DNA from: Elusimicrobiota bacterium
GTDB taxonomy: Bacteria; Elusimicrobiota; Elusimicrobia; UBA1565
Direction of reading: 5' to 3'
NCBI GenBank assembly: GCA_043819795.1
Contig: JBDREN010000120.1
Span: 25,681-89,680, forward strand
Length of the DNA: 64,000 nucleotides
This document shows, one piece after another, positions 25,063 to 64,000 of the stretch (the first letter of the stretch is position 1; each line of letters opens with the position of its first letter). Both the position numbers and the translations under genes were made by a program. The notes beneath the pieces were generated by a model, which was not told the DNA's origin, did no database searches, and saw only the letters and a list, made by a program, of their open reading frames with translations.

Positions 25063-25090
25063 ATAGCCCGGGACATCCGGCAGGTGATCG

Positions 25091-25123: not shown

Positions 25124-25143
25124 GGTTTCGACGACGCGGCCGC

Positions 25144-25624: not shown

Positions 25625-25688
25625 GAGCGGAGGACTTTTCCTCTCGGAGCGAGGCTTCAGTCCTGAGCGCAGCGAAGGATGCGAAAAA

Positions 25689-26054: not shown

Positions 26055-26060
26055 AAAATC

Positions 26061-26549
26061 TTACTTCAGGAGCTCGCGCGAGACCTCGAAGCGGCGGATG
26101 ACATCGGGAGCCGCTCCGTCAAGCTTGCCCGGGCGGAATACCGGGCTTTTTTTTACGGCGTCGAGGGCGTCGTTGGCGAGACGATCGGCCCGCTTGTTCT
26201 GCTCGCGCGAGATGTGGACGACCTCCACGGTCTTGAACTGCTTGCGGAGGTTCCGGATCTGAAGCATGTACTTGAAAAGGCGCTCGTTCTTGACCCGGTA
26301 CTCGCCGCTCAGCTGCCGCACGAGCAGCTGGGAATCGGAATGCACCGTGATCTCGTCGGCCTTCATCTCGCCGGCGAGGCGCAAGGCGTCGAGCATCGCC
26401 GTGTACTCCGCGACGTTGTTCGTCGTCTCGCCGATATAGCGGTGGTACTCCTTGACGGGACGGCCGGAGGCGTCCTGCAGCACGACCCCCACGGAGGCCG
26501 GCCCCGGGTTGCCCCGGCTGGCGCCGTCGATGTAGATGCTCAGCTTCAT
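26061..26549 (-). CDS. rnhA: Ribonuclease HI (RNase_HI-like type)
   Basis: IDGASRGNPGPA, TNNVAEY, DSQL.V.Q..G.Y.VK, H..RE.N.RAD.LAN. ATG at 26549 overlaps the upstream stop (ATGA). Confidence 0.92.
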   Translation of the reverse strand: MKLSIYIDGASRGNPGPASVGVVLQDASGRPVKEYHRYIGETTNNVAEYTAMLDALRLAGEMKADEITVHSDSQLLVRQLSGEYRVKNERLFKYMLQIRNLRKQFKTVEVVHISREQNKRADRLANDALDAVKKSPVFRPGKLDGAAPDVIRRFEVSRELLK

Positions 26550-27286: not shown

Positions 27287-27530
27287 AGGAGGAAAGCCAT
27301 TTAGATTATACAAAAAACCCCGCCGAGGCGGCTGCGCCATGCGCATGGATCGCGTTCGGAGGCCAATCGTCCGATCACGGCGGTCACGGCCGGGTCGTCA
27401 TCCGCTGCTAAGGGTCCGGGATACGAGACCTCCTACGATAAGCAGGAACGGGCGGGGCCTGGGACGGGTAGGCGCAGCGACGGCGTAGGCGCGGGCGGAT
27501 GGGAGCGGCGACGCGGAAGGCCCTTCCCGC

Positions 27531-28136
27531 TTACCGGCCGTAGCGCCCGACCAGCTCGGCCTGGGCCAGTATGTGCCCTTCCATGGCTTGCAGAAGCCAT
27601 GCCTTGTCGGCCTTCGGTGAGAGGTCAAGGGCCGTATCCAGGGCGTAAAGCTTGAAGTAGTAGCGGTGCGGTTTCCCAGGCGGCGGGCAGGGACCGTAGT
27701 AGCCGACCCGACTGAAGCTCTCCACCCCCCAGCAGGCGCCCTGCTTCGCGCCTCCGGCGAGGGTCTCCTTCTTCTCCACGCCCTCGGGAAGGCCCTTGGC
27801 CTCGCCCGGCATGTCGTAGAGCACCCAGTGGACCCAAGCGCCGGAAGGCGCGTCCGGGTCGTCCATGATCAGCGCGAGGCTCTTCGTCCCTTCCGGCACG
27901 CCGGTCCAGGTCAGCTGAGGGGACGCGTCGTCTCCGTCACAGGTGTACTTCTTCGGTATCGTCCCGTTGTTTTGGAAGGCGACACTCCGAATATCCATGG
28001 GCATGTGGGCGGCCTCCGTCCCGCTCTCGGTCCGGGCGGCCGGCTCGAGCGCGCTCCGGCTCGCTGGGGGAATCCGTTCCCCGCAGGAGACGAATACGAG
28101 CGCTCCGACGGCCACGACAACCTGGCGGTTCAGCAT
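27531..28136 (-). CDS. YbhB/YbcL-family (PEBP/RKIP-like) protein, probable lipoprotein
   Basis: IP.KYTCDG.D.SP.L.W, DDPDAP.G.WVHW, Y.GPCPP.G..HRY.F.LYALD; lipobox-like FVSC. Confidence 0.92.
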   Translation of the reverse strand: MLNRQVVVAVGALVFVSCGERIPPASRSALEPAARTESGTEAAHMPMDIRSVAFQNNGTIPKKYTCDGDDASPQLTWTGVPEGTKSLALIMDDPDAPSGAWVHWVLYDMPGEAKGLPEGVEKKETLAGGAKQGACWGVESFSRVGYYGPCPPPGKPHRYYFKLYALDTALDLSPKADKAWLLQAMEGHILAQAELVGRYGR

Positions 28137-28204
28137 GACGACATTATATAACCCTTTGCCGGGGAACGCGATGCTCTCTTGCCACCGCGCGCCGCGCGCT
28201 TCGC

Positions 28205-28233
28205 TTGACAGGCCCCGCAGCGCGGACTAAACT
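28205..28233 (+). promoter_or_regulatory. Putative sigma70 promoter
   Basis: TTGACA-17 nt-TAAACT, ending 16 nt upstream of ATG 28250. Confidence 0.6.
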
Positions 28234-28249
28234 GCCCGAAGAAGGGTTC

Positions 28250-30142
28250 ATGAGCATGGAAGGGCTTCTCTGGATCGAATTCGCGGCACGCCAGTTCGTC
28301 GAGGTATTCCTGCATCCTTTGCTGCTCGGGCATCTCTACGGCATCCTAGCCTTTACCTTCCTGTCCCGGAAAGCCGTCCGGCACGGCTTCCAGGGCCTAT
28401 CGTGGAAGGCATGGACCGCCTGGGGGCTCTGCGCTCTTCTGCCCAGCGTGATCCTAGCGTGGCTCTGGCCCGCGCCGTTCCTCGGCGCCGGCGACGCCTG
28501 GGAGGAGCTTTGGATGGCCCGCCTTCTGGCCGACGGCGAGGTCGCGCGCTTCCTCGCCGAGCACCGCCACGGCGCGCTGTTCCCCTATCTGGGCTCCTGG
28601 CTGATCCCGGTCTTCGGCGAGTCTCCCGCCGTCTCGAGCGCGCTCACCCACGCGGCCGGGTTCGGCAACGTCCTGGTGATCTTCCTCCTGACCTACTCAT
28701 GCTTCCGCGACGAAGCGGCCTCGGTGTGGGCCGCGACGCTATACGTCTTCTCCCAGTCCTACTTCCGCTTCGTCTTGGCCCTCAAGGGGGCGCCCACGGT
28801 CTCCCTGTTCGTCATCGCGTCCGCGGTCCTTCTCTGGACGATCGCCTACCGGTCGCGCGAGATCCGCCTGCACCTGGCCGCGCTCTGGGCGGCCGCGCTG
28901 CTCGTGAACGTGCGAGTGGAATTCGGGGTCTACCTCCCGCTCTTCGCGGCCGGATGGTTCCTGCTCTCGGGACCGAAGGAACTGGGCCCGCTCCTGGCGC
29001 GGCGCCCGAAGACGGGCGCGGTGGGGCTGGGGCTTCTTCTCGTGCTCCTGGCGCCGGCGTGCACCAACCTGCTGCCGGGCCTACGGCTCTTTCAAGGCCC
29101 CTCGGTGATCGAGAACCTCGAGGCCTACGGCTGGGGCTCGGCCGGCTACGCGTTCTATTTCGCGCGTCGTGTGCCTGATTGGCTCCGGTATTGGTTCGGC
29201 GGGCCCCGCCTTCTACTGCTCGGCGCGCTGGCCGTCTGCTTCCTGCGTCTCAGGCCCGAGCACCGCAGAACGGCCCTGTGGCTGCTGGGGGGCTTTCTGC
29301 TCCACAACGCGGTCTATATCGCCTTCGTGAACGGGCTCGAAAGGCGATATCTGGTGACCACCTGCGCCCTTCTGCTGCCGCTCCTCGGATACGGCATGGC
29401 CCGCGTATGGGACCTCCGAAGCCGCCTGGCGAAGGCCTTCCTGGTCGCGGCATTCGTCTTTTCCGTGAGCAAGGACCTCCGCCCGTTCTTCCATCCCTCG
29501 GACGACCCCAGCGAGCACTCCTGGAGGCGGCACCAAAACGTGGCGCGCGCCGAAGCCGCCATCAAGGTGCACGCGCGTCACGCGGGAAGGAATGATCCGA
29601 TCCCCATCCTGGTAGGTAAAGAGGAGTTTCGCTACTCCTGGCTATTCCTCACCGACCGGACGGTGCTGTCCTTGCAGGACGCGCTCATCTCCGAGCTGGA
29701 CGCCCGCCGGGAGGAATCCGCGGGGACGGATCGCCGGAAGACCGCGTTGCCCTCGCTGGCGGGAGAATCGGTCTACTACGTGCGCACGCCGGACAACGGC
29801 GATGCCGCGCGCTTGGACGTGCATCCGTTCGACCGGATGATAAGCGAAGCCTGCCGGGCGGAGCGCGTGGCTCTCGTCGACGATTGGGAGGTCCTGCTGC
29901 TCTCCGGCTGCGGCGATCCGAGAACAAAGAGGAAGTCCCCGCCCCGCAGGCCCTTCAGCTCCGAGATCCGCCACCGCCTCGGCCTCGCGCACCTGCGCCA
30001 GAGACGCTTCGCTAAAGCCATCGAAGCGTTCCGGGAGGCGCTCCGGCTCGATCCTCGCCACCCTATGGCCCGTCGCGACCTCGGCTTGGCTTACCGCCTG
30101 GCCGGGCGGCCCGACGAAGCGCCGGCCGCGAACGAAGAATAG
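28250..30142 (+). CDS. GT-C-like polytopic membrane protein with C-terminal TPR
   Basis: About 12 TM segments, GDAWEE loop, R.EF and RY motifs; TPR HRLGLAHLRQRRFAKAIEAFREALRLDP. Confidence 0.6.
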   Translation: MSMEGLLWIEFAARQFVEVFLHPLLLGHLYGILAFTFLSRKAVRHGFQGLSWKAWTAWGLCALLPSVILAWLWPAPFLGAGDAWEELWMARLLADGEVARFLAEHRHGALFPYLGSWLIPVFGESPAVSSALTHAAGFGNVLVIFLLTYSCFRDEAASVWAATLYVFSQSYFRFVLALKGAPTVSLFVIASAVLLWTIAYRSREIRLHLAALWAAALLVNVRVEFGVYLPLFAAGWFLLSGPKELGPLLARRPKTGAVGLGLLLVLLAPACTNLLPGLRLFQGPSVIENLEAYGWGSAGYAFYFARRVPDWLRYWFGGPRLLLLGALAVCFLRLRPEHRRTALWLLGGFLLHNAVYIAFVNGLERRYLVTTCALLLPLLGYGMARVWDLRSRLAKAFLVAAFVFSVSKDLRPFFHPSDDPSEHSWRRHQNVARAEAAIKVHARHAGRNDPIPILVGKEEFRYSWLFLTDRTVLSLQDALISELDARREESAGTDRRKTALPSLAGESVYYVRTPDNGDAARLDVHPFDRMISEACRAERVALVDDWEVLLLSGCGDPRTKRKSPPRRPFSSEIRHRLGLAHLRQRRFAKAIEAFREALRLDPRHPMARRDLGLAYRLAGRPDEAPAANEE

Positions 30143-30209
30143 TCTTGGGCATAGCGCGGGTTTTTCATACCATCTCCCATCGCTTGAGCACATCCCCGGG
30201 AGATACATC

Positions 30210-33200
30210 ATGACGCGACTGACCCTATCGCTCGGCCTTCTCGCCACGCAGGCCGCCGCCGAGCCCGCGCTCGCCGATCCGAGAGACTTCACGAAGGACG
30301 CCGAGATCGAAGGCTACCGCGTGATCAGCCTATACCTCGACGTCCAAGGCCAGCCCATGGGGGCCCGCTTCCGCCACGGCAACGGCATGCCGGTCGATAT
30401 CATCCGGGTTCCCTCGGTCCCGCAAGTCTCGCTCAACGTGGCCACGCCGCCCGATTCGGACAAGGGGGAGCCCCACACCCAGGAGCATCTCATCCTGGGC
30501 AAGGGGAAGACCGGCATCTATCTCAACAGCCTGTTCTCTATGAGCCTGGCCGACCACACCGCCGCCACGTACGCGGACGTGACCAACTACCAGTTCCATA
30601 CCGCGGCCGACAAGGAGACGTTCTACCGCCTCCTTCACCAGTTCTTCAAGGCCTTGATCCGTCCCGACTACACCGACGAGGAGATCCGCCGGGAGGTGGC
30701 GAACCTAGGCGTGGTCGAGGATCCGAAGTCCGGGCTGCTGCGTCCCGAAGAGAAAGGGACCGTCTACAACGAGATGGTCTCCACGATGGAGAAATCGGAC
30801 AGCGTCAACTGGTATCAGATGACGCCTCTCATCTTCGGGAAGGACAACCCCATGGCGCGCAACCAAGGGGGGCTGCCCTCCGCGATCCGCGAGATGACCC
30901 CGCGGGACATCCGGCGCTTCCACCGGATCCGCTACCACTTCGGGAGCAACATGGCGCTGATCGCCGCTCTCCCGGCCAGCTATCCCTTCCGCGAGTTCCT
31001 CTCGCGCCTCAACGGCGTCATGAAAGCCGTCGAGCCCGAGGCGCTCGACGCGGCGCCCGGCTGCCTGCCGCGGACCGGAGGCGGGACCGGTGAGCGGTGC
31101 GCCCGCTATCCCGCGATCCCCCCGTATAAGCCGGCGAAGGGAGCCCCCATCGTCATCGGCTCGTATCCCGGAGAGGACCCGAACCTCCCGCAAAGCGTCG
31201 CCTTCTCCTGGAAGCCCCTGAAACGAGCGCTCTCTCCCCGGGAATCGGTGGAGCTGGGCCTGCTGTTGTCGGTCCTGGCCGACGGCGAGACCTCATTCCT
31301 CTATCGGGACCTCATCGATGAGAAGACGCGCGCGATGGGGTCGGGCGCGACCAACGTGGGCTCCTACTTCCTGGAGGCTCCCGCGAACGTCCCGATGGTA
31401 TTCCTCTCGGGCCTGCCCCCCTCCGACCTGACCCGGGACAAGCTGGGCGAGATCCGGAAGGCGGTCATGAACCGCGTCCGTTCCCTCCGCGAGGCGCGGC
31501 GGCGCTCCCCCGTGCTCAAGGAGCTCAACGACAAGGCGGCCTCGCTGCTCTCGTCCCACCGGCGCAGCGCGCTCAAGTTCATCGACGCGCCGCCCGGCTT
31601 CGGCCGCCGCCATTCCGGGATATCCTGGCACCAGCATCTCGACACCCTGCACCAAGCGCCGGGGTTCCGCAAAGCGTTGGCCATGACCCCCTGGTTCGAC
31701 GCGGTGGAGAAGAAGCTCAAGAGCGGAGACAACTTCTGGGAGTCGGTGATCCTGCGAAACGGCCTCGATAAGGAGCCGATCGTCAGCGCGGTCAGGCCGG
31801 ACAAGTCCCTTTTGGAGTCCGACAGGAAGGCCAAGGCCGAGCGCCTCAAGGCGCATGAAGCCCGTCTTCTGCGGAAGTTCGGGACCAAGGACGCGCAGCG
31901 GGCGCTCGCCCGCCACAAGACGGAGCAGGAAAAGAAGACCGCCGAGCTCAAAGAGCAGGAAGAGTCCGTTAAGCGGCCCCGCTTCGTGGGCGATCCGCCC
32001 TTGACCCTGGACGAGATGATAGACTGGGAGGAAGGCGTCCTGAGCGGCCCGGTCCGGGTGGTGACCAGCCGCTTCCCCTCGACGCCGTTCACCGACGTCC
32101 ACGTGCTTTTCGACCTGCGGAGGCTTCCGGAGGAGGACCTCCCCTACCTGCCGGTCCTGCCCCCGCTGCTAACGGAGCTCGGCGCGACCACCCGGGACGG
32201 CGAGCGCCTCGACTACGTCGCGATGCGGGAGCGCTGGCGCGCGGAGATCTACGGCCTGAGCGCCAGCCTTTCCGAGAACCCCCGTACCGGGCGGCTCGAG
32301 CTCTCGCTCGCCGCCTCCGGCTCCGGCCCGCGGGAGAACGTGAAGGCCGTCGAGTGGCTCGAGAACTGCCTCTTTCGGGCGGACGTTTCCAGCCGTACGA
32401 CCGGCCGCCTGCGGGCGGTCCTCCGCGACCGGATCCGCGGCTTGCGCCAGATATTCCAGCTCTCGGAGGAACGCTGGGTGCGGCAGGCCGCCGACGCCTA
32501 CGCCTATCAGGACGATGCCCGCTGGATGAGCGTGAAGAGTCCCTTCACGCGTCTTCAGCACTTCAACCGCGTCTATTTCCGCCTTGCGGGTTATCCCGAC
32601 GCCGGGACCCGGGCCCTCGTCGAAGAGACCCTGCGGGACCTGGCCCGCGAGACGCGCGAGGGGACCCGCGCGCGGATCATGGAGCGGATCGACGGCCTGG
32701 CCTCGGGGGCGGGGCTGCGGCCCGAAAACCCCGAAACGCCGATCCTCGTCGACTTCGGCCAGTACCTGCAGGCCGAGCTGGCTTGGCTGCCCGAAGGAAG
32801 CTGGCGCAGGGACCTCGCGCGGATGATCCGGCAGACCGCGGCCGACCTGGCCCGCGACCCCGCCGCCGAGATGCGCCATATGAAGAATATCCTGTCCGAC
32901 ACGCTCACCAGGCGGAACGCGCGCGCGGCGCTGACCGGGAACCCGAAGGACACGAGGGACATCCTCCCGGCGCTGCGCTCCTTGGCGGAGGCTCTTCCGA
33001 AGGGCAAAAGGCCCTCGTCCCGCCGAGGACGGACCGGGTCCGTGGTCCTGGCCCGGCTCCGGGAGCGCCATCCGGGCCTCAAGAGGCCGGTCCACGTCGG
33101 ACTCGTCAACAACAGCACGAAATCCGGCGTCTATGTGCTCTCCGCGGCGGCCCCTTCTTATTGGGACCGCGGCGAGGACGCGGCGCTGGATTACCTGGCA

Positions 33201-41598: not shown

Positions 41599-42813
41599 TC
41601 ACTCGCGACGACGCCGCGCCTGACTCCCCAGGTTCTTCCAGATCCCCAAGCCCTTGGCCCCCATCCTCAGCGCGGCCCGGCGCAGCCTCTCAGCCAAGGA
41701 GGCCTGATGTCCCCAGAGCGCCGCCTTGTCCAGATCCTCCAGGCAGCCGGCGCCGTCGCCCAAGGCGAGCCGCACCTCGGCGCGGAGCCGGTGATGCCAG
41801 CCGGGCTCGGGATGAAGCCGCGCGCAGCGGTCCAGGTCCCGCAGGGCGGGCTCGAGCCGCTTCAGGCTCAAGAGGCACCGCGCGCGCCACGCTAAAGCCT
41901 GCCCCCAATCCCCCCGTTCGGCGACAAGCCGCGAGAAATGCCGCTCGGCCTCCTCGAAATCCCCCCCCTCGCACAGGCGTCTGCCGGTCTCGAGCGCGGA
42001 ATCCATCCCATCGGGACCCGTCACGTCCGTCCCGGCGGCCGCGGCCGGCGCTCGGGGATCGGTCGGCTCCGAGGCCGCCGGCGGGATATAAAGCGTGTTG
42101 AACTCGTTCGGGCTCTTCAGCGCTTGGGCGAGCCCGCTCAACGGCAACGTGCGCTTGCTCCCTTCCGGGTTGGCGATCCAAGGGCACTCGACCAGGGTCA
42201 CCGGATGCTCGGGCGGGTAGAAGCGCCCCAAGTGGTCGGCCAGAAGGCGTAGGCGGCCCTCCTGCTCCTCTTTTTGCAGGTAGCCGATCTTGACGATCAG
42301 GGTGGGCACCGAGGGCTGAAGGGGCGTGACGCTGATGAGCCCCGAGAACCCGTCGGCGTCGTAGACGTGCAGGCCGCTCCAGAGCGCGGTCAGCTCAAGG
42401 AAGCTCAAGACCGCGTCCAAAGAGGACACCGCGTTGAGTATCCGGTAGCCGATACCGCGCCTCCGGCAGGCCGCGATCAGGCCCTGAGAAAGGCTTGAGA
42501 GGAAAGTGGCGTGCCCGTAGTTGAGCACCGCGACGCGGCGGCCATCTTCCACGACGCGAAGGACCTCCTCCACCTTCCGCGACGCCACCTCGTCATAGGA
42601 GCCGCTTCCGGCCAGATCGTTGAGGTCCCTCACGTCCCCGCAGAGGCGCAGCACCAGGCCGGAAGTCTTGTCATCCAAGGCGTCGGTGAAGACGACCGTC
42701 GCGTCCTTGAGGGCCTGGCTGGTCTCCAGAGTCATTTGGGGCAGGTCCAGCCCGAACCCGCAGATCGTCAGCGAACCCTCCCGGCCGCCGCGCGAGGGGC
42801 TTCCTTTACCCAT
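41599..42813 (-). CDS. Tetrapyrrole-methylase-fold SAM-dependent methyltransferase, borosin-like, with C-terminal TPRs
   Basis: GSLTICGFG...QMTLE...L..A..VF, V..G.RVA...YGHA.F, AVSSLD, G...YDA, L...YPPEHPV; TPR-like helices in the C-terminal third. Confidence 0.7.
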   Translation of the reverse strand: MGKGSPSRGGREGSLTICGFGLDLPQMTLETSQALKDATVVFTDALDDKTSGLVLRLCGDVRDLNDLAGSGSYDEVASRKVEEVLRVVEDGRRVAVLNYGHATFLSSLSQGLIAACRRRGIGYRILNAVSSLDAVLSFLELTALWSGLHVYDADGFSGLISVTPLQPSVPTLIVKIGYLQKEEQEGRLRLLADHLGRFYPPEHPVTLVECPWIANPEGSKRTLPLSGLAQALKSPNEFNTLYIPPAASEPTDPRAPAAAAGTDVTGPDGMDSALETGRRLCEGGDFEEAERHFSRLVAERGDWGQALAWRARCLLSLKRLEPALRDLDRCARLHPEPGWHHRLRAEVRLALGDGAGCLEDLDKAALWGHQASLAERLRRAALRMGAKGLGIWKNLGSQARRRRE

Positions 42814-44215
42814 ATCGGCCGCCCCACAGCGCCAGCGTCAGGACGTCCCGCCGCAGCAGCACGGTAAGCACCGCGCCGAGGAATATCCAGAAAGCGAACG
42901 GCCTGGTCTTCTTGAACGCCACGACCTGCAGCGCGCGGCTCCGGCACCAATGCTTGAACGCGCCGGTCTGCTCCGGCGTCAGCCCGTCCGGATAGAGGCG
43001 GTCGAAGTGGTCCCTGAAATACTCCGGGTCCTGCCTCAGGGCTCCGATGGTCTCCTCGGCGGGCACGAGGTACGGATGCACCTTTTTGAGAGGGAGATAG
43101 ACGACGTCCTGCTCCAAGAATGAGGAGACCAGGAAGTAGGCCAGCCCGCAGAGCGTCCCCCACAGGGCCCAGCCCAACAGGCCCGACGCGCCGGCGTAGC
43201 CGAGGCGGGCGAGGACCGCGCCGGGGCCGATGATCGAGAGGATCAGGGACCCGATCCAAAGCAGCGCGAGGAAACGCTCCCGCACTCCCAGAAAGACTCG
43301 AACCATGGCCTTGCCGGCATCCATGGCCGCCATGAAGAAGAGCCATTCCCACCAGTTGCCCCAGAAACGCGGCCAGTCGCCCGGAGCCGCCTGGTACGCG
43401 GCCGCCGCGAGAGCCGCCAGGCAGAGCCCCCACGCGACGCGCTCGCCGGCGGCGCGCCGGAGGAGGTCCCAGACCAGGAAGACCCCGATAAAGAGCGCCG
43501 GCTCCGGCATCCCGACGAAGGCGCGCGCGCCGTCCAGCCAGGTGGCGGCGGCGGCGCCCACCACGGTGAAACCCATCCTGCCGGCCAGGCCGTAGGCGGA
43601 GGCGCGCGGGTCCCGGCGCAGCCCGGTCCAAGACTCCGCCAGCCTCCGCGAGACTTCGGCGCGCAGCTCGGCCTGGCTCTTAATCAAGTAGGGAAGCAGG
43701 CGGAAGAGGCCCAATTCCCGGAGGAACCCCGCCCCGTGCCTCAGCTTGAACCTCCATACCCACCACATGGTGCGCGCGACCACGAAGAGCGCGGCCGGAA
43801 TGAAGATGTTCATCAGGAAAGCCAACGCCAAACGACCCGGCAGGAGCGCGCTGCCGGGATCGACGATAGGCAGCCACAGGCACAGAAGCAGAAAGAGCTT
43901 GGCGTCGCCCGCCGGCCACAGGCCGAGCCGCCAGATCAGCACGCCGGCCGCGACGGCCGCGGCCATATGGACGAGGATCGCGGGATAGAACGACCATGCG
44001 GGGTAGGCCCGGAGGAAGGGAGCGGGGAGCAGGCCCTTCGAGGCCAGGGCCGTCCATCCGATATACGCCGCGTAGGCGAGCCCCACGACCTTCAGGCAGG
44101 CCAGCAGCATGCGGTTGGGGATCCTCTTGTACTTGTGATCGGTGTAGAGGACGACGACAGCCGCCGCGAGAGTGAGCGCCGCCAGCGGCCAGCGCACCGC
44201 CTCCGCCACGCTCAT
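42806..44215 (-). CDS. A24-family prepilin/preflagellin-type aspartic peptidase
   Basis: Two catalytic Asp motifs, YTD...KRIPN and AGDAKL; multiple TMs; C-terminal GLT.EQ...PFA.WIFLG. Confidence 0.82.
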   Translation of the reverse strand: MSVAEAVRWPLAALTLAAAVVVLYTDHKYKRIPNRMLLACLKVVGLAYAAYIGWTALASKGLLPAPFLRAYPAWSFYPAILVHMAAAVAAGVLIWRLGLWPAGDAKLFLLLCLWLPIVDPGSALLPGRLALAFLMNIFIPAALFVVARTMWWVWRFKLRHGAGFLRELGLFRLLPYLIKSQAELRAEVSRRLAESWTGLRRDPRASAYGLAGRMGFTVVGAAAATWLDGARAFVGMPEPALFIGVFLVWDLLRRAAGERVAWGLCLAALAAAAYQAAPGDWPRFWGNWWEWLFFMAAMDAGKAMVRVFLGVRERFLALLWIGSLILSIIGPGAVLARLGYAGASGLLGWALWGTLCGLAYFLVSSFLEQDVVYLPLKKVHPYLVPAEETIGALRQDPEYFRDHFDRLYPDGLTPEQTGAFKHWCRSRALQVVAFKKTRPFAFWIFLGAVLTVLLRRDVLTLALWGGRYG

Positions 44216-44285: not shown

Positions 44286-44642
44286 TCATGTGCCGCTGCC
44301 GTGCGAGCCGTGGGAGCCGTGGGAGCCGTGGGAGCCGTGCGAGCCGTGCGAGCCGTGCGAGCCGTGCGAGCCGTGGGAGCCGTGCGAGCCGTGGCTCGTA
44401 TGGCTCCCCACGCCCCCGGAATTGTGCAGCCAATTGTTATGGTAGGGCGTCGCGGCCAAAGCCACGTCCACGGCCGAGCCTATCAAGCCGAGGGCGATCG
44501 CGGTCTTGACCACGTCCTGCTCCACGATCTTGCCCTCCTCGCTGCTGAGGAATACGGAGGCGTCCTTGGCCGCCTTCGCGATCAGCTTCTTGCCTTTCGT
44601 CCTCGATGTCTTCTTCCGCTTCTTCTTTTTCGGCCCGGCCAT
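44286..44642 (-). CDS. His-Xaa-Ser repeat RiPP precursor (HxsA-like)
   Basis: RBS GAGGGG; Lys-rich N-terminus, FLSSEEG, hydrophobic segment, then HNS...HTS(HGS)11GT. Confidence 0.88.
   Translation of the reverse strand: MAGPKKKKRKKTSRTKGKKLIAKAAKDASVFLSSEEGKIVEQDVVKTAIALGLIGSAVDVALAATPYHNNWLHNSGGVGSHTSHGSHGSHGSHGSHGSHGSHGSHGSHGSHGSHGSGT
44295..44393 (-). repeat. 9-bp tandem repeat x11 encoding His-Gly-Ser
   Basis: CAC-GGC-TC(C/G) units; variation is confined to the Ser codon (TCC/TCG/AGC). Confidence 0.95.
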
Positions 44643-44652
44643 GGCTATCCCC

Positions 44653-46929
44653 TCAGGCTGTCTCTACGGCTTTTTCTTTCCGCCCCTTCTCAGGAGCCCC
44701 GCCGCCGGCGGGTACCGCCTGAAAAAACGTCCAGGTGACCTTCTTATTGAGCTTCCCCGCGGCGCTCAGGGAAACCGGCTCAGCCGACAGCTCCCAACCG
44801 GCTTCGCGCAGGTCCCGGGCCACATGCGCTCCGATCTCGGCGGGCTTGTCCGGCTCCCCGCTCCCTTGGCCCCGCCTCCCGATAAATTCGAGGTCCGCCA
44901 GCCCCACCGAGTCCATCCACATCACGAGCCGGCCGTCCTTCACCGGGTTGCGCTCCCGGAGCCAGCGCAGGACCAGGACGCGCAGGGAGGGCGGGATCGC
45001 GCGATAGACGTTCGAGAGGACCGTGGCTTCGAACGGACGCCCGGGGGACGGGAAGAGCCGCTCCCAGCGCTCCGCGCGCGTCTCCTCTAGGTGGATATGC
45101 CCGCTCCCCTGCGCCTGACAGATCTCGAAGGTGTCGTCCTGAATCGTCGATAGGACATGGATCATATGGGAACCGCGGCAGAACTGCTGCTCCCCTTCCA
45201 CCTTCTCCCACCCCATCCAGCGCATCCGGCCGCTGCCGAAACGGACTCCGCCCAGAAGCTTGAGAAGGATCGGCCGGAACGCCCGGACGCCCAGTACCCG
45301 ATCCCACAAGACCCGGCTCTCCTGAGAGCGGAAAAAATGGCGCAGCGCGGGCCACTCGTCCGAGCGGCCCGCGGCCTCGAGCTCGGCCCGGGTGAACGCG
45401 GCCAGGGATTCCAGGTACTTAAGGCGTTGCTCGGCCGCGAGCCCCTCCCACGCGACCGGCTCCCGGACCATCACCTTCCCGAGGGCGTCATAGCTGGCGT
45501 ACCACGAGCGGTTGAGCCTCAGGACGTCCCCCCCTCCGTCCATATGCCTATAGACCCTCTCGTACATGTCGACCCAGGGCGTGCGGGGGACGGAAGCCGA
45601 ATCCTGCGGACGCCCGACCTCGCCGACAGTCTCCAAGGCCCGCCGCACGGGCCCGTACTTGTGGACGGTGAGCACGCGGATAGTCAACCAGTCGCATTTC
45701 TCGATATCCTCTTCCGAAAAACTCTCAGTCGAGACGATCCGATAGGGCGGCTCCTTCTGCGCCCGCGTGATGCCGTAGATCTCCGGATGCCTGCCGTATT
45801 CGGCCCCGGGCAGCGCGAGAGCGCGCGGAAGGAACATGGACTTGGGCTTCTTTGCGAGCACCCATTCGAGCGAACGCCGGTACCCGGCCGCGTCGTCGTC
45901 CGGAAGGCCGTGGATGAGCTGAAGATGCGTGCTGGCCTGCGGCGCGAGCTTGCGTAGGTTCCGGAGGGAGCGCTCCGCGCCGCGAAGGCTGAAGCCCCGC
46001 GCCATGCGCTTGAGCGCCTTGGGCTGGATGGTCTCGACGCCGGCGCCCAGAGAGAACTTGAGAGAGTCCAGACTGCGGGCCAGATCCTCATCGATATTCG
46101 TCAGGTTCGTCTGGAAATGCCAGTGCACGCTGGCGTCGCCCGTAGCCCGGTCGAACTCCTCCAGCAGGTAGGCCGCGCGGCCCTTATCGCTGAAGACGTC
46201 CGCGTCCGTGACGAAATAATACATCCCGGTGGCCTGGCGATGGACGGCCTCCACCTCGCGAACGGCGCGCTCCTTGGGGAACCAGCGGGTCTTCTGCCCG
46301 TTATGCCAATCGCAGTACCGGCACCGTTTGGGGCAGCCCCTAGAAGTCTCGAGCGCGAGGCAAGCGTCGTCCTCCCGGATCTCGAAAGTCCCGTCCAGAT
46401 AGGGCGAGGGGATGACGGACAAATCCTCGATGAGCGGCCGCTCGGGCGTCTCGACGGGACGGCCGGCCTCGCGGTACGCGAGGCCGGGAACCCGGCCCAA
46501 GGAGCGGCCCCGCGCCCAGGCCTTGAGGATCTCGGCGAACGTGACCTCTCCCTCGCCGCGGACGACGACGTCCGCCTCGGGGATATCGCGCAGGACCGCG
46601 GCGGCGCGAACGCTCACCTCAGGACCCCCGAGCACGATGCGCAAGCCGGGCCGGTCCTTCTTGAGCTCCCGGCAAATCGCCGCGACGCGGGCCATGTTCC
46701 ACAGGTAGCAGGAGAAACCCACGACGTCCGGCTCCTCCTCGAGCACCGCGCCGCCGACCACATCCGGTTTCGATTGCACGCTGTGCTCCAGGAGCGTCGT
46801 ACGCACGAGGCCCTTGAGCTCCCGCAGCGAGTCCGCATAGGCCTTCAGATAGCCCAAAGACAGCGTATGGCGGTAGTAGTCATGGTAGCGTAGGCCGACC
46901 AGTACCGCGGACAATCTCGCCTTAGCCAT
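44653..46929 (-). CDS. B12-binding radical SAM protein (class B methyltransferase-like) with a C-terminal class I MTase-like extension
   Basis: LSLGYLKAY, PDVVGFSCYLWN, VLGGPEV, GEGE.TF, IPSPYL, ETSRGCPKRCRYC, LIHGLP.D. Confidence 0.88.
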   Translation of the reverse strand: MAKARLSAVLVGLRYHDYYRHTLSLGYLKAYADSLRELKGLVRTTLLEHSVQSKPDVVGGAVLEEEPDVVGFSCYLWNMARVAAICRELKKDRPGLRIVLGGPEVSVRAAAVLRDIPEADVVVRGEGEVTFAEILKAWARGRSLGRVPGLAYREAGRPVETPERPLIEDLSVIPSPYLDGTFEIREDDACLALETSRGCPKRCRYCDWHNGQKTRWFPKERAVREVEAVHRQATGMYYFVTDADVFSDKGRAAYLLEEFDRATGDASVHWHFQTNLTNIDEDLARSLDSLKFSLGAGVETIQPKALKRMARGFSLRGAERSLRNLRKLAPQASTHLQLIHGLPDDDAAGYRRSLEWVLAKKPKSMFLPRALALPGAEYGRHPEIYGITRAQKEPPYRIVSTESFSEEDIEKCDWLTIRVLTVHKYGPVRRALETVGEVGRPQDSASVPRTPWVDMYERVYRHMDGGGDVLRLNRSWYASYDALGKVMVREPVAWEGLAAEQRLKYLESLAAFTRAELEAAGRSDEWPALRHFFRSQESRVLWDRVLGVRAFRPILLKLLGGVRFGSGRMRWMGWEKVEGEQQFCRGSHMIHVLSTIQDDTFEICQAQGSGHIHLEETRAERWERLFPSPGRPFEATVLSNVYRAIPPSLRVLVLRWLRERNPVKDGRLVMWMDSVGLADLEFIGRRGQGSGEPDKPAEIGAHVARDLREAGWELSAEPVSLSAAGKLNKKVTWTFFQAVPAGGGAPEKGRKEKAVETA

Positions 46930-46965: not shown

Positions 46966-49181
46966 TCATGCGGCCTCCGTCGAAAAGACCGTCCAGCGGC
47001 TCCCCGCGGCCGAAAGGGACTCGGGCTCGGCCCGGAGCCTCCAGCCGCAGCGGCCCAGCTCCCCAGCCAGCTCTCGAGCCCGGATGGGGGACGCCTCCGG
47101 AGCGCTCCCTCCGGAGGACAGCCAGAACCGGTCCCTTTCCAGGAGCGAGGGCGCCGCCAGATCGTCGAAGACGGCCAGCCGCGCGCCCCGCCCAGCGCGC
47201 CGGCGCAGTCCCGAGAAGAACCGCTCCCGTTGGGACGGAGTGAGAGAACGGCACACCTGGGAGACCACCGCCCGCCTCAGGTCCCGGGAGCCCGCCCCCG
47301 CGGGACGGCCCTTCTCGAGGACCCCGCGCTCCACTCCCCGCTCGAGATCGTCCGCCCTGAAATGGAAGCCGTCCGCGCAGTGGTCGTCGAACTTCACGAG
47401 CGGAGATACCCAGTGCAGGCGCCGCGCGCCGGGCAGGAAGCGCCCTCGGCCGCCGAGAACTCCTCGCACCCGATCCAGCAGTCCTCCGCCGCGGGGCCGC
47501 GTCCGTTCGCGGAGCCTCCGACGAGCTTCTCCACGAGGCGATGGAATGCGACCGTCCGCGTCAGGTCCTTCCACAATAGGACGCGGCGCTGGCGCTCCAA
47601 AAAAGCGTCGAGCGGCGGCCAGGCGTCCGCGCGGCCGGACTCCTCCAGGGCCCGGCGCGCGTAGGCGCGGAGCCGGTCGACGAACTCCCGGCCGTGGGCC
47701 CGCAGGAAATCGTGTCCCCAGGGCTCCTCGTCGAAGGTGACGAAGCCCAGCAGGTCCTTGCGGGCCCGGCGATAGAGCTCGCTCAGATCCAGAGGCGTCC
47801 CCTCCAGCGAGCGCGCGAAACCCTTGAGCGAGCGGACATAGCTCATGGGAACCCCGCCCGCGAGGCTGGCCCCCAGATAGCGCAGCGCCCGCGCGACGAA
47901 GCCCGCTCCCTGGAATGTGAAGTTCCAGAAGGCCAGCATGTCGGCGGCGCGCAGGTCCCGCGCGCTGAAGGAATCCGAGGACAGGACGCGGTACGGCGGC
48001 TCCTTCTGGCAACGGAGCCCGTAACGCTCGGGGTCGTCCCCCATGCCGGAGCCGGGAAGCGCCAGCGCCGGGAACAGCATGAGGGTATCGGGCCACAAAG
48101 ACAAGGCGTACTCGATGGAAGCCTCGAAGCCTTCCAGGTCGTCTCCGGGGAGGCCGTAGATCAGCTGCGCGTTGAGCTTGGCCCGCGGCGCCAGGCGGCG
48201 CAGGAGAGCGGCGTTGGCCCGGGTCTTGGCGTCGTCGAAGAATCGGGTGAGCCCCCGCAGGACGTGAGGGTTGACGGACTGGATGCCCACGGCCAGGGTG
48301 AACTTCTCCGAGTCCAGAGACGCCATGAGCTCCTCGTCCATCCCGAGGTTCGGCAGGTAGGTATGCAGCTCCCAGACGCAGCGCTTGCCCTCGCCGGCGC
48401 GCCGGAAGCCGCGGATGAGCCGCCGGCCCCGCTCGCGGTCGAGGAACATGTCCGCGTCGCACATGAACACTTTGGCCCGGGGAAGCTTCTCGAGCAGGAG
48501 GCGAGTCTCCGAGAGGACCCTCTCTTCGTCGAAGGTCCGGACCCGGCGCTTGTTCTTCCAGTCGCAGAACTTGCAGTCGAACGGACAGCCGCGGTCGGAC
48601 TCGAAGCAGAGGTGGGGATAGCCGCCGAGCGGCAGTATGCCCTCGAGAAAAGGAGAGGGGATCTCCCCGAGATCATCGACAAGGGGACGGGCCTCATTGA
48701 GCCGGACTCCCTGTCCCCCGCGCCAAGCGAGGCCGGCCACGCGCTCCAGGCGCTCGCTTCCCCCGCCCGACAGGAGCGCCCGCAGCAGGTCCGCGAACGT
48801 CGCTTCCCCCTCCCCGACGACGATGAAGTCGGCCTCCGGGCATGCGTCCATGTAGCGCAGAGGGCGCGCAGAGACTTCGGGACCGCCGAGGACGACCATC
48901 AACTCCGGCCTCGCGCTCTTGAGACGGCGCGCCAGGGCCGCGATCCAGCGGACGTTCCAGAGGTAGCACGAAAGACCCACCATGCCGGGAGAGGAGCTCA
49001 GGACGCGGTCGGCGGCGGCGGCGACCGCGTCCGAGGTCGAAAATACCTCGATCCCGATGGAGAGCCGCCGCTTGAGCCCGGGGCGCGACTGGGCGTAAGC
49101 TTGGAGATAGCCCAGAGCCAGGCCGCAGTCGTACGCGCAGTGGCGGACCCCGACCAAGCGGACGCCGAGGCGTTCCGTCAT
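46966..49181 (-). pseudogene. B12-binding radical SAM paralog interrupted by a 1-nt frameshift near 47443-47445 (595-aa N-terminal ORF 47394-49181; C-terminal domain in another frame to 46966)
   Basis: GLSCYLWN, VLGGPEV, GEGE.TF, ESDRGCPFDCKFC. The shifted frame continues ...GWRLRAEPESLSAAG, matching the paralog's GWELSAEPVSLSAAG. Confidence 0.8.
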
Positions 49182-49184: not shown

Positions 49185-50357
49185 TTAGCGCTCCTCCTCG
49201 ACATCTTCCCCGACCTCTTGCAGCCTTTCTTCCCATGTCTTCGGCGCCGACTTCTCGGGAGTCCCTTTCCCCTTGCCGCTCCCCGCTTCGCGCTTCCGCA
49301 TCTCCTCTCGATGCCGGCGGCGCCACTCCTTCTGCGTCTTCTTCTCCTCTTTCTCGATCCGCCGCCGCTCCCGCTCCTCGGCCTCATCCTGCCGAAGGCC
49401 GCCCGTGGCCTTACGCCTGTCGCAGAACAGGCGGGTCCAATACCGCGCCGCGGCCCGGCATTCCGCCATGGGCGCCTTGGCGAACGCGGCCCGGCACGCC
49501 ATTCTGTGCCGCTTGTCCTTGGGGCAGAGCCTCCGGTCCTTCTCGGCCAAGGCCGCGATGAAAGCGCGGCGCACGTCACAGAGCCTCGACTCCTCCTTCA
49601 TGGCGCTCTCGTACCGGGCGAAGCGTTGCTTGTCGAACTTCAATGAGCGCTCTTGCGAGAATCCCTCGACGGCCCGCATAAAGTCGCCTTCCTTCATCTG
49701 CGGCTGCCCGCAGGTCTCGCGCGAGGGCGCTATCGTTAAGGTGCAGTACATCTTGAACACCCGGGAGATCCCGGCCGGGACGACCTCCGACATCTCCCGG
49801 CAGGCCGAGCCGGAACCGGTGCGGATGACGTCGACCCCCGTCTTACAGAGCCTGGGGCAGTCCAGACGGAATTGCGCCTGGACATAATCCTCGCACCAGC
49901 GCCGGCAATGCCGGTCCGCGTCGGGATAGTCCTTGTGTTCAAGGGCGCTGTGCAGCCTGAGCAAATGGTGATCCCTGCGGCAGTCGGCATCCAGCAGGTT
50001 GGCGACGGAAAGGCCGTCGATCCCGCCAAGCGGGGCGCACGCGTCCTCATCGTCCTCCACGAAGGCCTTGCACTGGTAATAGCCGGCTAGCAGGTTGACG
50101 GCGTCCGCGCCCTGCTCCGGAGAAAAGCCCCAATGCTTGGCGCCGGCCTCGACCAGCATGGGGAACGTCGCGGTGGACATGCACGCCTCGTAGGTGGTGG
50201 GAAGCTGGGACCCAAAACCGCCATCGCCTCCTTGGGCCTGTGCCGCCGGCGCCGGAAGCGCCAGGATGAATCCCGCCGCGAGCGCTCTCAAAAAAAGCCT
50301 CCCGCCAGGAACGGCGGCGGCGCCTGCCCCTCCCTCCACGGGGACGGAGCGGCCCAC
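49185..50357 (-). CDS. Exported Cys-rich protein with charged C-terminal tail
   Basis: Signal peptide (AQA|QG); about 16 Cys; embedded in the operon. Confidence 0.7.
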   Translation of the reverse strand: MGRSVPVEGGAGAAAVPGGRLFLRALAAGFILALPAPAAQAQGGDGGFGSQLPTTYEACMSTATFPMLVEAGAKHWGFSPEQGADAVNLLAGYYQCKAFVEDDEDACAPLGGIDGLSVANLLDADCRRDHHLLRLHSALEHKDYPDADRHCRRWCEDYVQAQFRLDCPRLCKTGVDVIRTGSGSACREMSEVVPAGISRVFKMYCTLTIAPSRETCGQPQMKEGDFMRAVEGFSQERSLKFDKQRFARYESAMKEESRLCDVRRAFIAALAEKDRRLCPKDKRHRMACRAAFAKAPMAECRAAARYWTRLFCDRRKATGGLRQDEAEERERRRIEKEEKKTQKEWRRRHREEMRKREAGSGKGKGTPEKSAPKTWEERLQEVGEDVEEER

Positions 50358-51850
50358 CTCTCGAATATCACGCGCGTGCCCGGATCACGGAGATGCTCGA
50401 AAATCAGGTCGAAATAGCCCATATACATCGCGCAGCGGTCGCTGGTGGGATTCCGGCCCCATATCGAGCCCTGAGCCGCGTAGTTGTAGACGGGCGAGAC
50501 CCCGCAGAACGGCTTGTAGGCGCACTGAGAACAGAGGGGCTGGGCGCCCAGGTCCGAGGCGATGGTCGCCGCCTTGACCGTGGGGTGGTGCACAAGGTCC
50601 AGGAACCGCTCGTCGACGCTGCCGATCCGGAAGAAATCGTCCCCCTCCAGGTCGGCCAGCCCCCTCCCCTCGTCGCTAAGGAACACGTCCCCGTTGTGGT
50701 CGTAGCAGAGCTGGGCCAGACCGCCGCCGCAGGGAGAGCGCAGCTCCGTGTGGCCGGGGTCCTCGCCCCGGAGGATCTTGGTCAAAAGCAGGGCGGCGTT
50801 GCCCTCCATGAGATCGCATCCCGCGCGGTTGAGTTCCAGCACCCGCCGCAGGCAGTCGGCGTAGAACCCCAAGTACTCCTCGGCCGAGTAGCCAAGCTTC
50901 CGCCAGCGCTCCCGCGCCGCGCCCGCGGGAAACAGGGGCCGCGGGAACACCGCCGGCAGCTTCAAACGGGCGCATTCGGCGACGATGTCGCCCGCACGCG
51001 AGAGTGAGTCTCTTGTCACGGATAGCCACGCCTCCGGCGGCGCGGCGTGGGGGTAGCGCTCGGCGATGACCGCCAGCCAACGCGCCGCCTCCCCGTGGCC
51101 GCTCCGATCCCGGCGCGGCACGTCGTTCGTGGGCGGGAGGCGTCCACCGAGGAAGGGGCGGTGCCGGTCGTGCAGGTCCGCGGGACCGTCCAGGGGTACG
51201 CACAGACGGACCTCGTTCTCCATCAGGAAGGCCAGCTTATCGTCGTCCAGGAGGCTGAGGTTGGACACCATCGCCAGACGCAGGCTGCGTCTGGCGAATT
51301 CGGCGAACGAACGCGCATGGCTCACGATGAATTCCACCGCCGGCCAGTTCAGCAACGGCTCCCCCCCGCGCAGCTCGATCGTTATCTCGGAGGCTTGGCT
51401 GTCGAAGATGGATTTCACCACTCGGCGCGCGACCGCCAGCCTCATGTCGGGCCGGTCGTCTTCCGGAGGCTTGCGGGACGCGGGCTGGTAGGGAGAACCC
51501 TGGTTGCGCCGCCGCGTCACCGCGACGACGTGCAGCCCCGGGGCGCTCCGCAGGTAGGCGGTGCGCCTCTTGTATCGCTCGATCAGCAGGGGGAAATCCA
51601 GGTGGTCGCGCAGGAAGCCCTCGCCGCAAAGAGCGTTCCACAGGGGCGTCTCCTTGGCGATCCCGCCGGAGATGAACCGGCGGAAGTCCTCCGGCTCCAG
51701 CCACAAATGCCCGCCCCACTCGTTGGTCAGCTGATAGCCGCCGGCCAGGCGGCGGAACAGGCAGGGCCCGACGGAGCCTGGCAACTTCCTACCGATCAGG
51801 GGCTTCAGGGTCGCCGATACCGAGTTCGTCCAAGACCTTGAGTCTTTCAT
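50288..51850 (-). CDS. HxsB-like radical SAM/SPASM protein lacking the CxxxCxxC motif
   Basis: F.R....Y.LTNE.G N-terminus, GGEPLLN, LDGP..LHD.HR, ELRSPCG, Y..NGDV..SDEGR, CSQCAYKPFCG..PV.NY..QG. Confidence 0.8.
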   Translation of the reverse strand: MKDSRSWTNSVSATLKPLIGRKLPGSVGPCLFRRLAGGYQLTNEWGGHLWLEPEDFRRFISGGIAKETPLWNALCGEGFLRDHLDFPLLIERYKRRTAYLRSAPGLHVVAVTRRRNQGSPYQPASRKPPEDDRPDMRLAVARRVVKSIFDSQASEITIELRGGEPLLNWPAVEFIVSHARSFAEFARRSLRLAMVSNLSLLDDDKLAFLMENEVRLCVPLDGPADLHDRHRPFLGGRLPPTNDVPRRDRSGHGEAARWLAVIAERYPHAAPPEAWLSVTRDSLSRAGDIVAECARLKLPAVFPRPLFPAGAARERWRKLGYSAEEYLGFYADCLRRVLELNRAGCDLMEGNAALLLTKILRGEDPGHTELRSPCGGGLAQLCYDHNGDVFLSDEGRGLADLEGDDFFRIGSVDERFLDLVHHPTVKAATIASDLGAQPLCSQCAYKPFCGVSPVYNYAAQGSIWGRNPTSDRCAMYMGYFDLIFEHLRDPGTRVIFERWAAPSPWREGQAPPPFLAGGFF

Positions 51851-52307
51851 TGAGGTCCACCGCTCCGCCCCGTCCTTCCACTTCGTCCTTCCCGGAGCCC
51901 ACGTTGAGCTCCCATTCCGCCTCCCGGATCAGCTCTTGGATCTCGTTCTGTTCGTTCCCGGAAGGGCCGGCCGACCGGGCCGGATCCGGCCGCTCGCCGC
52001 GCTCTCCCGCGGCGGCCAGCAGCGCCTGGGTGATGATGAATTCCCGGACGGAGCGGTTGTCCGCCGCGATGCGGCGGCGCAGCTCCTGGGCGATGGCCTC
52101 CTCCGAGAACTCCTCGGCCAGCGCCTCGAGCGCCCGCCGGCTGGAGCGCTTCTTGGGCCTGAGGGTGAGTCCGTTCTTCCGGACCCAGACCTCGGCCTTG
52201 CGCGTAAGGACCTGCGCGGCGCCCAGGACCGCGTCGGGATGGATCGCCCCGGGATCGAGGGTCACCGAGACCGTCTGGTCCTTCTCGTTGAGCTTTCGCT
52301 TTGACAT
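51789..52307 (-). CDS. HxsD-like His-Xaa-Ser system accessory protein
   Basis: RBS GGAGAAGG; A...AA..L...A.V and EF.EE...QELR..I......VRE.II..AL pattern; first gene of the operon. Confidence 0.65.
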   Translation of the reverse strand: MSKRKLNEKDQTVSVTLDPGAIHPDAVLGAAQVLTRKAEVWVRKNGLTLRPKKRSSRRALEALAEEFSEEAIAQELRRRIAADNRSVREFIITQALLAAAGERGERPDPARSAGPSGNEQNEIQELIREAEWELNVGSGKDEVEGRGGAVDLNERLKVLDELGIGDPEAPDR

Positions 52308-52488: not shown

Positions 52489-52495
52489 CGCGCGC

Positions 52496-52547
52496 GATGT
52501 CGCGTGCGCGATGTCGCGTGTCGTGCGATGTCGCGTGATGTCGCGTG
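52496..52547 (+). repeat. Four copies of GATGTCGCGTG
   Basis: At 52496, 52510, 52527 and 52537, in the divergent intergenic region. Confidence 0.8.
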
Positions 52548-52697
52548 CGACCCTGACGCAGGGCGCCCGATCCGGCTATGATACAATCAGGGCAGGTGGA
52601 CTCGATGAGGCGGCAGCTTCCTCGGGCCGGCCGCCCGGGGAAGCTGTGTCGGTGGCCAGTGCTGGGAGAGCGTCAAAGGTCCAAGGAATCCGATTAG

Positions 52698-62902: not shown

Positions 62903-63041
62903 TCAGGTGTCAACTTGTCAACTAACTCCCGGGAGAGGCCCGGTTAGTTAACAAGTTAACATCTGATAATCATCTAGAGGTCCCCTCCCGCAGGTTGTAT
63001 TGTTTCGTTGCGAGACGAACATTCCAACCCGAGGAGGGGAC
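62903..63041 (+). other. Structured non-coding region upstream of the IS110 recombinase (two hairpins)
   Basis: 24-bp-arm imperfect inverted repeat 62903-62966; hairpin GTCCCCTCC...GGAGGGGAC (62980-63041) covering the RBS. Confidence 0.6.
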
Positions 63042-63043
63042 AG

Positions 63044-64000
63044 ATGAAATTATACGCAGGAATCGACCTGCATTCCAACAACAACGTGCTGGTGATCTTG
63101 GATGAACGCGATCGGATCGCATACGAGCGTCGTCTGCGAAACGATCTTCCGTTCGTCTTGGCGCAGTTGGCGCCGTATCGGGAGAACCTGGAGGCCATCG
63201 CCGTTGAGTCGACGTTCAACTGGTACTGGCTGGTTGATGGGCTCATGGAGGCGGGCTATACCGTGAAGCTGGTGAACACGGCGGCAGTGAAGACCTACGA
63301 CGGGCTTAAGTACACGGCGGATGAGCATGATGCCCGTCATTTGGCTCACCTGCTGCGGCTGGGGGTTCTGCCGACGGGGCACATCTATCCGAAAGAAGAG
63401 CGCGCCGTGCGCGACCTATTGCGCAAGCGTGCCCAACTAGTGCGGTGTCGCACCGCGCAGATCTTGAGCATCCAGAACTTGGTCAGCCGCAATAGCGGGA
63501 AGAAGATCTCGGTGGCAGATATTCGCCGGCTCGACGAAGAGGTGATCGACCGGATGAATGGTGGTGATGGCACCCGGGCGTTGGCGATACAAAGCAACCT
63601 GGCGGTATTGCGCTGTCTGGATGAGCAGATCCGAGGACTCGAGCGCGTGGTGCTGGCGCAGGCAAGGCTTAAGCCGGCCTTCAAGAAGCTCTTGACCGTC
63701 GCTGGCATTGGGAACATCCTCGGCATGACCATTATGTGCGAGGCTGGAACCATGGATCGCTTTGCAAAGGTTGGGCAGTTCGCATCCTATGCGCGTTGCG
63801 TGGGCAGCTCACGCTGGAGTAATGGCAAGAAGAAGGGTGAGGGCAACCGGAAGAACGGGAACAAATACTTGGCCTGGGCGTTTTTCGAAGCGGCGCATTT
63901 TGCCGTGCGCTACAACGAACGCAGCCGGCGATTTTATCAGCGGAAGAAGGCCAAGACCAACGGGATCGTTGCCATCAAGGCGGTCGCCCACAAGCTGGCT
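63044..64000 (+). mobile_element. IS110-family (DEDD) transposase/recombinase, cut off by the window end
   Basis: Not in the ORF track because it has no stop. Manual translation gives MKLYAGIDLHSNN...AVESTFNWYW...KYTADEHDA...LL.VAGIG...ASYARCV...SNGKKK...KNGNKYLAWAFFEAA. Confidence 0.92.

Follow-up and report, generated by a model that had tools for sequence, protein, structure and literature searches.

Can a homolog of the radical-SAM enzyme HxsB that lacks the cysteines of its catalytic cluster still have a part in a peptide-modification pathway? The question is raised by an operon in an Elusimicrobiota genome, located in a window (the whole stretch of DNA analysed, 64,000 nucleotides of contig C120) and arranged in the order hxsD, dead hxsB, Cys-rich gene, two B12 radical-SAM genes, HxsA4, A24-like peptidase, and N-methyltransferase with TPR. 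Its members are:

51789..52304, minus strand: hxsD homolog, 171 aa; the start of the motif-less gene lies within it (TIGR03976, E 8.7e-7, 29.2 bits, cut-off 50)
50288..51850, minus strand: motif-less HxsB homolog, 520 aa, open frame from the ATG at 51850
49185..50357, minus strand: Cys-rich protein of no known family, directly downstream of the motif-less gene (synteny)
46966..49181 (ORF 47394-49181), minus strand: B12-dependent radical-SAM enzyme A, CxxxCxxC intact (PF02310 and PF04055)
44653..46929, minus strand: B12-dependent radical-SAM enzyme B, CxxxCxxC intact (Pfam, synteny)
44286..44642, minus strand: precursor HxsA4, 118 aa (NF038313, 79.8 bits, cut-off 55)
42806..44215, minus strand: membrane protein that weakly matches the A24 (prepilin) peptidases (PF01478, E 3.3e-4, under the cut-off)
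41599..42813, minus strand: borosin-like peptide N-methyltransferase domain with TPR (PF00590)

The database call for the motif-less gene starts 22 codons later and gives a product of 498 aa. In a profile search of NCBIfam the product of 50288-51850 matches HxsB (TIGR03978) with E 3.5e-105 and 352.4 bits, below the cut-off of 370, and this genome's two intact HxsB score 480 and 474 bits; in a Pfam search of the 520-aa product, neither Radical_SAM nor any other domain was found. A preliminary description of this DNA had reported an intact frame of 520 aa that keeps GGEPLLN, with all three radical-SAM cysteines replaced in frame at exact spacing, and we found the same. R115, S119 and Q122 align without gaps to the C-x3-C-x2-C of intact homologs (LHVVAVTRRRNQGSPYQPAS versus LHIAVLTLRCNHRCAYCQAS), and the three columns are Cys in all 12 intact sisters in the alignment. 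The sites and domains considered below are:

51563..51763, minus strand: candidate RRE-like N-terminal domain, residues 30-96 (predicted secondary structure)
51485..51508, minus strand: former CxxxCxxC site, now R115-x3-S119-x2-Q122, with the aromatic Y121 kept (alignment with intact homologs)
51356..51376, minus strand: ELRGGEP, with GGE kept and F-Q replaced by L-R (R161) in 14/14 clade members (alignment)
51158..51196, minus strand: SAM ribose motif, with Ser replaced by P219 and R231 kept (alignment)
50495..50731, minus strand: AuxI ligand positions C374 (SPC), S392 and S452 (mapped on PapB AC1)
50432..50533, minus strand: AuxII ligands C440, C443, C449 and C473, CxxC-x5-C...C (mapped on PapB AC2)

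The codons at the former motif are CGC for R115 (51508-51506), TCT for S119 (51496-51494) and CAG for Q122 (51487-51485), all on the minus strand. That the first two are one base from a Cys codon had been pointed out, but this is a coincidence, because residues vary at all three sites across the 14 members of the motif-less clade described below: N, S, G, T, A or R at the first, T (11 members) or S (three) at the second, and G, A, R, Q, T or L at the third. None of the 14 has an alternative three-cysteine motif of the form Cx14CxxC or CxxCx4C. Without the three-cysteine cluster a protein cannot cleave SAM; since an ancestor lost both AuxI and the SAM-cleaving cluster, no 5'-deoxyadenosyl radical can be formed, as follows from this established chemistry. 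The delta-RS variant of PapB likewise made no 5'-deoxyadenosine (PMC10470005).

The loss is not peculiar to this genome. Among the best 120 of the 432 matches in a homolog search, 13 lack CxxxCxxC (the window protein included), all of them within the best 20, and the motif-less set has derived neighbours in common: L-R for F-Q before GGE, Pro for Ser in SLDG, and Ser for two SPASM cysteines. Sequencing error is ruled out, as 12 of the 119 other homologs among these best 120 share both the loss and the derived neighbours. In public sequence runs, small identical pieces of the contig occur in two studies; among the pieces listed none extends across 51485-51508, and there is no RNA run among the matches listed. 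With one more sequence from genome G011, the 13 form a clade of 14 distinct, full-length sequences, the other members being approximately 50-57% identical to the window protein. An IQ-TREE tree was built from 39 rows, leaving out an intended outgroup row that was a duplicate, and the columns of the motif and of AuxI were masked; on it the 14 motif-less sequences are one branch (support 100/100) nested among intact HxsB. The 28-row group that holds the clade among intact HxsB has support of 99/97, and this genome's own copy, on contig C96, is one of the 12 nearest intact sisters. Thus, the motif was lost once, in an ancestor, and not by three recent point mutations. The earlier view that the three substitutions are not sequencing error is borne out by the shared loss, but their reading as separate, recent events is not.

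All named members of the clade are Elusimicrobiota. In a phylum-wide search of 301 genomes the clade was found only in this genome (G000) and G002, at more than 800 bits against 631 for the next best match, and in a sample of 41 genomes of relatives it was found in three (G000, G002 and G011). We also examined recurrence across 384 distinct HxsB-like sequences, of which 25 were dropped for low coverage. The motif is missing in 33 of the remaining 359, 14 belonging to this clade and 19 lying elsewhere; on a FastTree tree these 19 occupy some six other positions, a number made uncertain by long branches, and two of them are on contig C32 of this genome. This recurrence of motif loss in other HxsB lineages (19/359) suggests that HxsB has a role apart from catalysis.

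We fitted a GY-type codon model to the four distinct clade genes with DNA (477 codons) and found that the motif-less clade is under purifying selection. Its omega is 0.052 (F3x4) or 0.026 (F61), values that are rough because dS is saturated; neutrality is still excluded, as omega = 1 is rejected for the clade (2dL 885 with F3x4, 905 with F61) and also on this genome's own branch (2dL 70 and 45). Under the same model the omega of four intact sisters is approximately 0.007, again a rough value at saturated dS, and NG86 pairwise dN/dS is 0.04-0.36 in the clade and 0.30-0.42 among intact sisters, with dS saturated and GC3 between 0.56 and 0.96. Recent decay of a redundant gene, or a sequencing error in one, is very improbable. 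The existence of intact paralogs, a rate of evolution twice that of the sisters (root-to-tip 0.97 versus 0.47) and a frameshift in a neighbouring gene would suit it, but the loss is shared by 14 diverged, full-length proteins and neutrality is rejected on both the clade and this branch, although a very recent relaxation in this genome alone would show only against a close relative. Judged from its sequence, the product of 50288-51850 is a retained radical-SAM pseudo-enzyme and not the outcome of decay or error; monophyly, purifying selection and the lack of a replacement cysteine motif agree with the earlier description of it as such.

What the emptied active site might now do was assessed from the residues around it. 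In SkfB, SAM is contacted by GGE, by S211 of the ribose motif, by R223 and by the aromatic residue of CX3CXphiC (PMC6231123). In the motif-less clade GG[E/D] is kept, and the window protein retains GGEPLLN; the ribose-motif Ser (SLDG), which is Ser in 99% of intact homologs, is Pro in 14/14 members. The site may have been reshaped so that it binds SAM, the peptide core or some other ligand and carries out or senses something different, a function without radicals that we consider unlikely. R161 and P219 are fixed in all 14 members, T/S-P-Y stands in the old motif, GG[E/D], Y121 and R231 are kept, and the stem branch of the clade measures 0.22 substitutions per site. However, the ribose-motif Ser and the SAM-binding iron are gone, the second half of the barrel is the most relaxed part after AuxI, and there is no conserved new set of metal ligands, the invariant residues of the clade including only four Cys (all of AuxII) and two His.

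The two auxiliary clusters have fared differently. AC1 of PapB is held by C352/C370/C421 and AC2 by C408/C411/C417/C440 (PMC10470005). The window protein has lost two of the three corresponding AuxI ligands, which are Ser here, and the other 13 members have lost all three (the equivalent of C374 is Tyr in each), so AuxI is gone. The four AuxII cysteines are complete in 14/14 members and are the sole invariant Cys of the clade; judging from these ligands, AuxII would hold a 4Fe-4S cluster. The preliminary description had the SPASM cysteines as kept, which applies to C374 and to the AuxII set but not to AuxI positions 392 and 452. AuxI is also incomplete in many HxsB with an intact motif, all seven Cys being present in 208/347. 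Three motif-less HxsB homologs (P0126, P0178 and P0225, the first of which NCBI names a SPASM domain-containing protein) have both auxiliary cluster sets, the opposite AuxI pattern.

Rates of change divide the protein in the same way. The ratio of clade to sister distances is 1.63 for the N-terminal domain, 1.64 and 2.18 for the first and second barrel halves, 2.37 for the AuxI region and 1.21 (CI 0.92-1.55) for the AuxII region, where it is still 1.21 without the four Cys. The AuxII region is thus about as slow as in the active sisters, and the remainder evolves 1.6-2.4 times faster. This constraint, the invariance of the AuxII cysteines, and the finding that 28 of the 33 motif-less HxsB homologs keep all four of them and only three of the 33 keep AuxI, are what would be expected if the protein were a natural delta-RS delta-AuxI electron relay, with AuxII passing electrons to the active radical-SAM/cobalamin enzymes much as a ferredoxin does, possibly while docked on the same complex. 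For PapB it has been proposed that electrons pass from one radical-SAM enzyme to another through AC2 (PMC10470005). We regard the relay as the main alternative, a tentative one of low probability, and it may be combined with the platform reading given below. A fully ligated AuxII may be needed merely to fold the SPASM domain; a PapB variant without both RS and AC2 is unstable, and the PapB study concludes that no specific reductant is needed (PMC10470005). Moreover, the link to B12 enzymes is no stronger than that of intact sisters, and the whole barrel and N-terminal domain, unneeded for a relay, are kept.

Structure prediction gave a model of limited confidence (13-row alignment, mean pLDDT 61.6, SPASM part under 50), whose nearest fold is anSME (Z 21.4, rmsd 4.3, 339 residues aligned, a partial TIM-barrel), followed by CteB (Z 20.2). 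In this model of mean pLDDT 61.6, residues 30-96 are predicted to form three strands and then three helices, which is the RRE topology, and we treat them as a candidate RRE-like leader-binding domain. The Atlas match of this domain is weak (PqqD on 11% of one cluster, score 0.90), no credible match came from Pfam and PDB sequence searches with it, and RRE is absent from the fold-search lists of the whole model, which barrel matches fill. Profile comparison showed no relation between HxsD and the N-terminal domain. Designed PPR repeats, the domain's only PDB profile matches, were rejected as spurious, with per-repeat scores of about 5 bits. RRE domains bind the leader peptides in CteB, NisB and LynD, and SuiB binds its leader without its RRE (PMC6231123).

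An hxsD homolog lies directly upstream of the motif-less gene in 4/4 clade loci, and a precursor is present in the three clade loci long enough to show one. In the other clade loci (L047/L132, L049 and L048/L050) hxsD precedes the motif-less gene, which is followed by the Cys-rich gene and a B12 enzyme; L047/L132 and L050 each contain in addition three HxsC-like enzymes, a precursor and a gene of aminotransferase size (named as such for L047). At 3725-4960 and 9733-11034, L047 carries genes for a member of the aminotransferase family and for a SufS-like cysteine desulfurase. The Cys-rich gene directly follows hxsB in 7/7 loci of the subfamily, dead or intact, and does not follow the C96 copy; its product gave no Pfam or NCBIfam match and no usable Atlas match, and has a hydrophobic N-terminus and a charged tail. 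Two intact-sister loci (L129 and L130) show hxsD, intact hxsB, the Cys-rich gene and B12 enzymes, and the third (L128) ends too early to show downstream genes. Thus, the motif loss tracks neither the presence of B12 enzymes nor the absence of HxsC, both of which had been suggested: intact sisters L129 and L130 have the same gene order with B12 radical-SAM genes, and the motif-less loci L047/L132 and L050 contain HxsC-like enzymes. For hxsC itself (TIGR03977), there is no match on C120 and there are 22 elsewhere in the genome, none over the cut-off.

The window precursor, HxsA4, has a basic N-terminus, a conserved FLSSEEGK leader, a hydrophobic stretch and 12 His-Xaa-Ser repeats. Homologs of the membrane protein at 42806..44215 recur in HxsB loci, and it is a candidate leader peptidase. 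The product of 41599..42813 matches the borosin alpha-N-methyltransferases (MroMA at E 1.8e-12, also OphMA and SonM) and has a homolog in L132; a borosin-like gene in a His-Xaa-Ser cluster suggests backbone N-methylation of HxsA4. In enzyme A there is a frameshift near 47445, real or an assembly error, that puts its last ~155 residues (46966-47445) in another frame; in L129 and L130 its homologs read on into the ~155-residue tail without a change of frame. Elsewhere in the window we noted a short imperfect tandem repeat of period ~14 at 52494-52537, between hxsD and a divergent gene, a sigma-70-like site at 52553-52582 (plus strand), and an IS110-family transposase at 63008-64000 (plus strand) that runs off the window end.

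Each of the three genomes with a clade member (G000, G002 and G011) has at least two intact HxsB. On contig C96 of this genome (~20800-30700, L134) hxsD, an intact hxsB, HxsC-like, RlmN-like and B12-like radical-SAM genes lie together, with no precursor at that locus. The assembly, which is 90% complete, contains only two precursors, and the enzymes that the C96 ones match, at 44-65%, are encoded together in single loci of relatives. The system therefore seems to be divided between C120 and C96; the C96 locus resembles the half that the window's cluster lacks, and its enzymes may act in trans on the window precursor. Among the matches from G002 (95% complete) and G011 (83% complete) there is no intact sister-type HxsB, only more distant HxsB. 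A second His-Xaa-Ser supercluster with its own HxsA4 lies on C32 (~20400-42900, L135 and L136), with one intact and two motif-deleted HxsB, several hxsD, approximately seven HxsC-like genes and a flavin-dependent halogenase-like gene; similar layouts occur in G001, G010, G032 and G034. Coexistence with intact paralogs that have a precursor of their own in the same genome (C32) would allow the motif-less protein to act as a regulatory decoy, binding the precursor or HxsD and keeping them from intact HxsB so that the pattern of modification differs, and its place in the gene order is exactly that of intact HxsB in the related loci L128-L130. We find a decoy improbable, slightly more so than a remodelled site, as simple gene loss would have the same effect where leaders differ.

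Taken as a whole, the motif-less HxsB probably serves as a non-catalytic helper in the peptide-modification pathway. Our preferred reading, with a probability of roughly 0.5, is that it would be a non-catalytic platform that pairs with HxsD and binds the precursor. Radical chemistry would have ended when an ancestor lost, once, both AuxI and the SAM-cleaving cluster, and the protein would have persisted as the non-catalytic partner in an HxsD-HxsB module, the two presumably forming a complex. The HxsA4 leader would be bound via the RRE-like N-terminal domain, the emptied barrel or both, and the peptide presented to the tailoring enzymes (B12 radical-SAM, HxsC-like, N-methyltransferase and peptidase). 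The AuxII 4Fe-4S site would stay as a structural or interface element, and HxsB chemistry, if still needed, may be supplied in trans by an intact paralog elsewhere in the genome.

The platform reading accounts for the kept N-terminal domain, the fixed link to hxsD, the repeated losses and the intact paralogs, and it is favoured by the rates, the N-terminal domain being no more relaxed than the first barrel half and less so than the second half and the AuxI region. Several points weigh against it. The most constrained part is the AuxII region and not the RRE, a protein of 500 residues exceeds the needs of leader binding, and enzyme A of the same locus is frameshifted, unless this is an assembly error. 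The RRE call depends on a model of low pLDDT and a weak Atlas match, and the SuiB case shows leader binding without an RRE. In E. coli, HxsC and not HxsB pulled down HxsD, an HxsB-HxsC complex was not observed, and the HxsB cluster is essential, C98A/C101A having abolished processing (PMC13128918). A precursor-binding scaffold and an electron relay, both suggested in the preliminary description, are thus the two leading candidate roles, though with no special tie to the B12 enzymes. Joining the two ideas, HxsB may have been turned, once here and repeatedly in other lineages, into an AuxII-only redox and docking subunit that holds the precursor and feeds electrons, a proposal we hold as tentatively as the relay itself.

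Comparison with known systems shows where this protein belongs. It resembles HxsB (TIGR03978) in homology over the whole length, hxsD upstream, a His-Xaa-Ser precursor in the operon, GGE and the AuxII cysteines, and differs in lacking CxxxCxxC, AuxI and the ribose Ser and in scoring below the family cut-off. As it descends from HxsB but fails the score and motif tests, we file it as an HxsB-derived pseudo-enzyme. Unlike a typical HxsB locus, there is no HxsC on the window contig, and, unlike E. coli HXS, the locus adds B12 enzymes, a borosin-like methyltransferase and an A24-like peptidase. Dead paralogs in RiPP clusters have precedent, and the grasp-with-SPASM protein TIGR04193 of graspetide loci is described as a SPASM protein in a RiPP locus without the radical-SAM cluster; it belongs to another system and lineage, and is not among the 25 NCBIfam matches of the window protein. 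TIGR04193 is listed in Table 1 of PMC8939145, and that paper treats it as an ordinary SPASM enzyme. The locus is also not the four-gene HXS antiphage defence system (PMC13128918), which blocks the entry of phage DNA, its order here being D, dead B, Cys-rich, B12, B12, A4 and its 118-aa precursor ending in its repeats; neither Elusimicrobiota, HxsA4, B12 nor inactive copies come up in that paper's main text. The fold matches anSME and CteB and the Cys spacing maps onto AC1/AC2 of PapB, but these are active three-cluster enzymes and the window protein is a natural delta-RS delta-AC1 form. The accessible text of PMC9062424 and PMC8939145 mentions HxsB and TIGR04193 and describes no such motif-less protein, and we found no description of a motif-less HxsB in the main texts searched, which include few subscription journals.

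Although function is inferred here and the host clade is rare and uncultured, these results show that an HxsB-like annotation is no proof of activity. What the second auxiliary cluster does in SPASM enzymes has been called an enigma (PMC10470005). The clade offers stable natural proteins expected to carry AuxII alone, beside intact sisters that are 53-56% identical, and with both in hand the structural and redox roles of AuxII are separable, where engineered cluster-deletion variants are unstable. It also separates the catalytic role of HxsB from the non-catalytic one in His-Xaa-Ser systems, which include an antiphage defence. An AuxII-only docking and redox subunit, if that is what the protein is, would show a role of HxsB apart from catalysis and would provide a natural single-cluster protein for asking what AuxII does.
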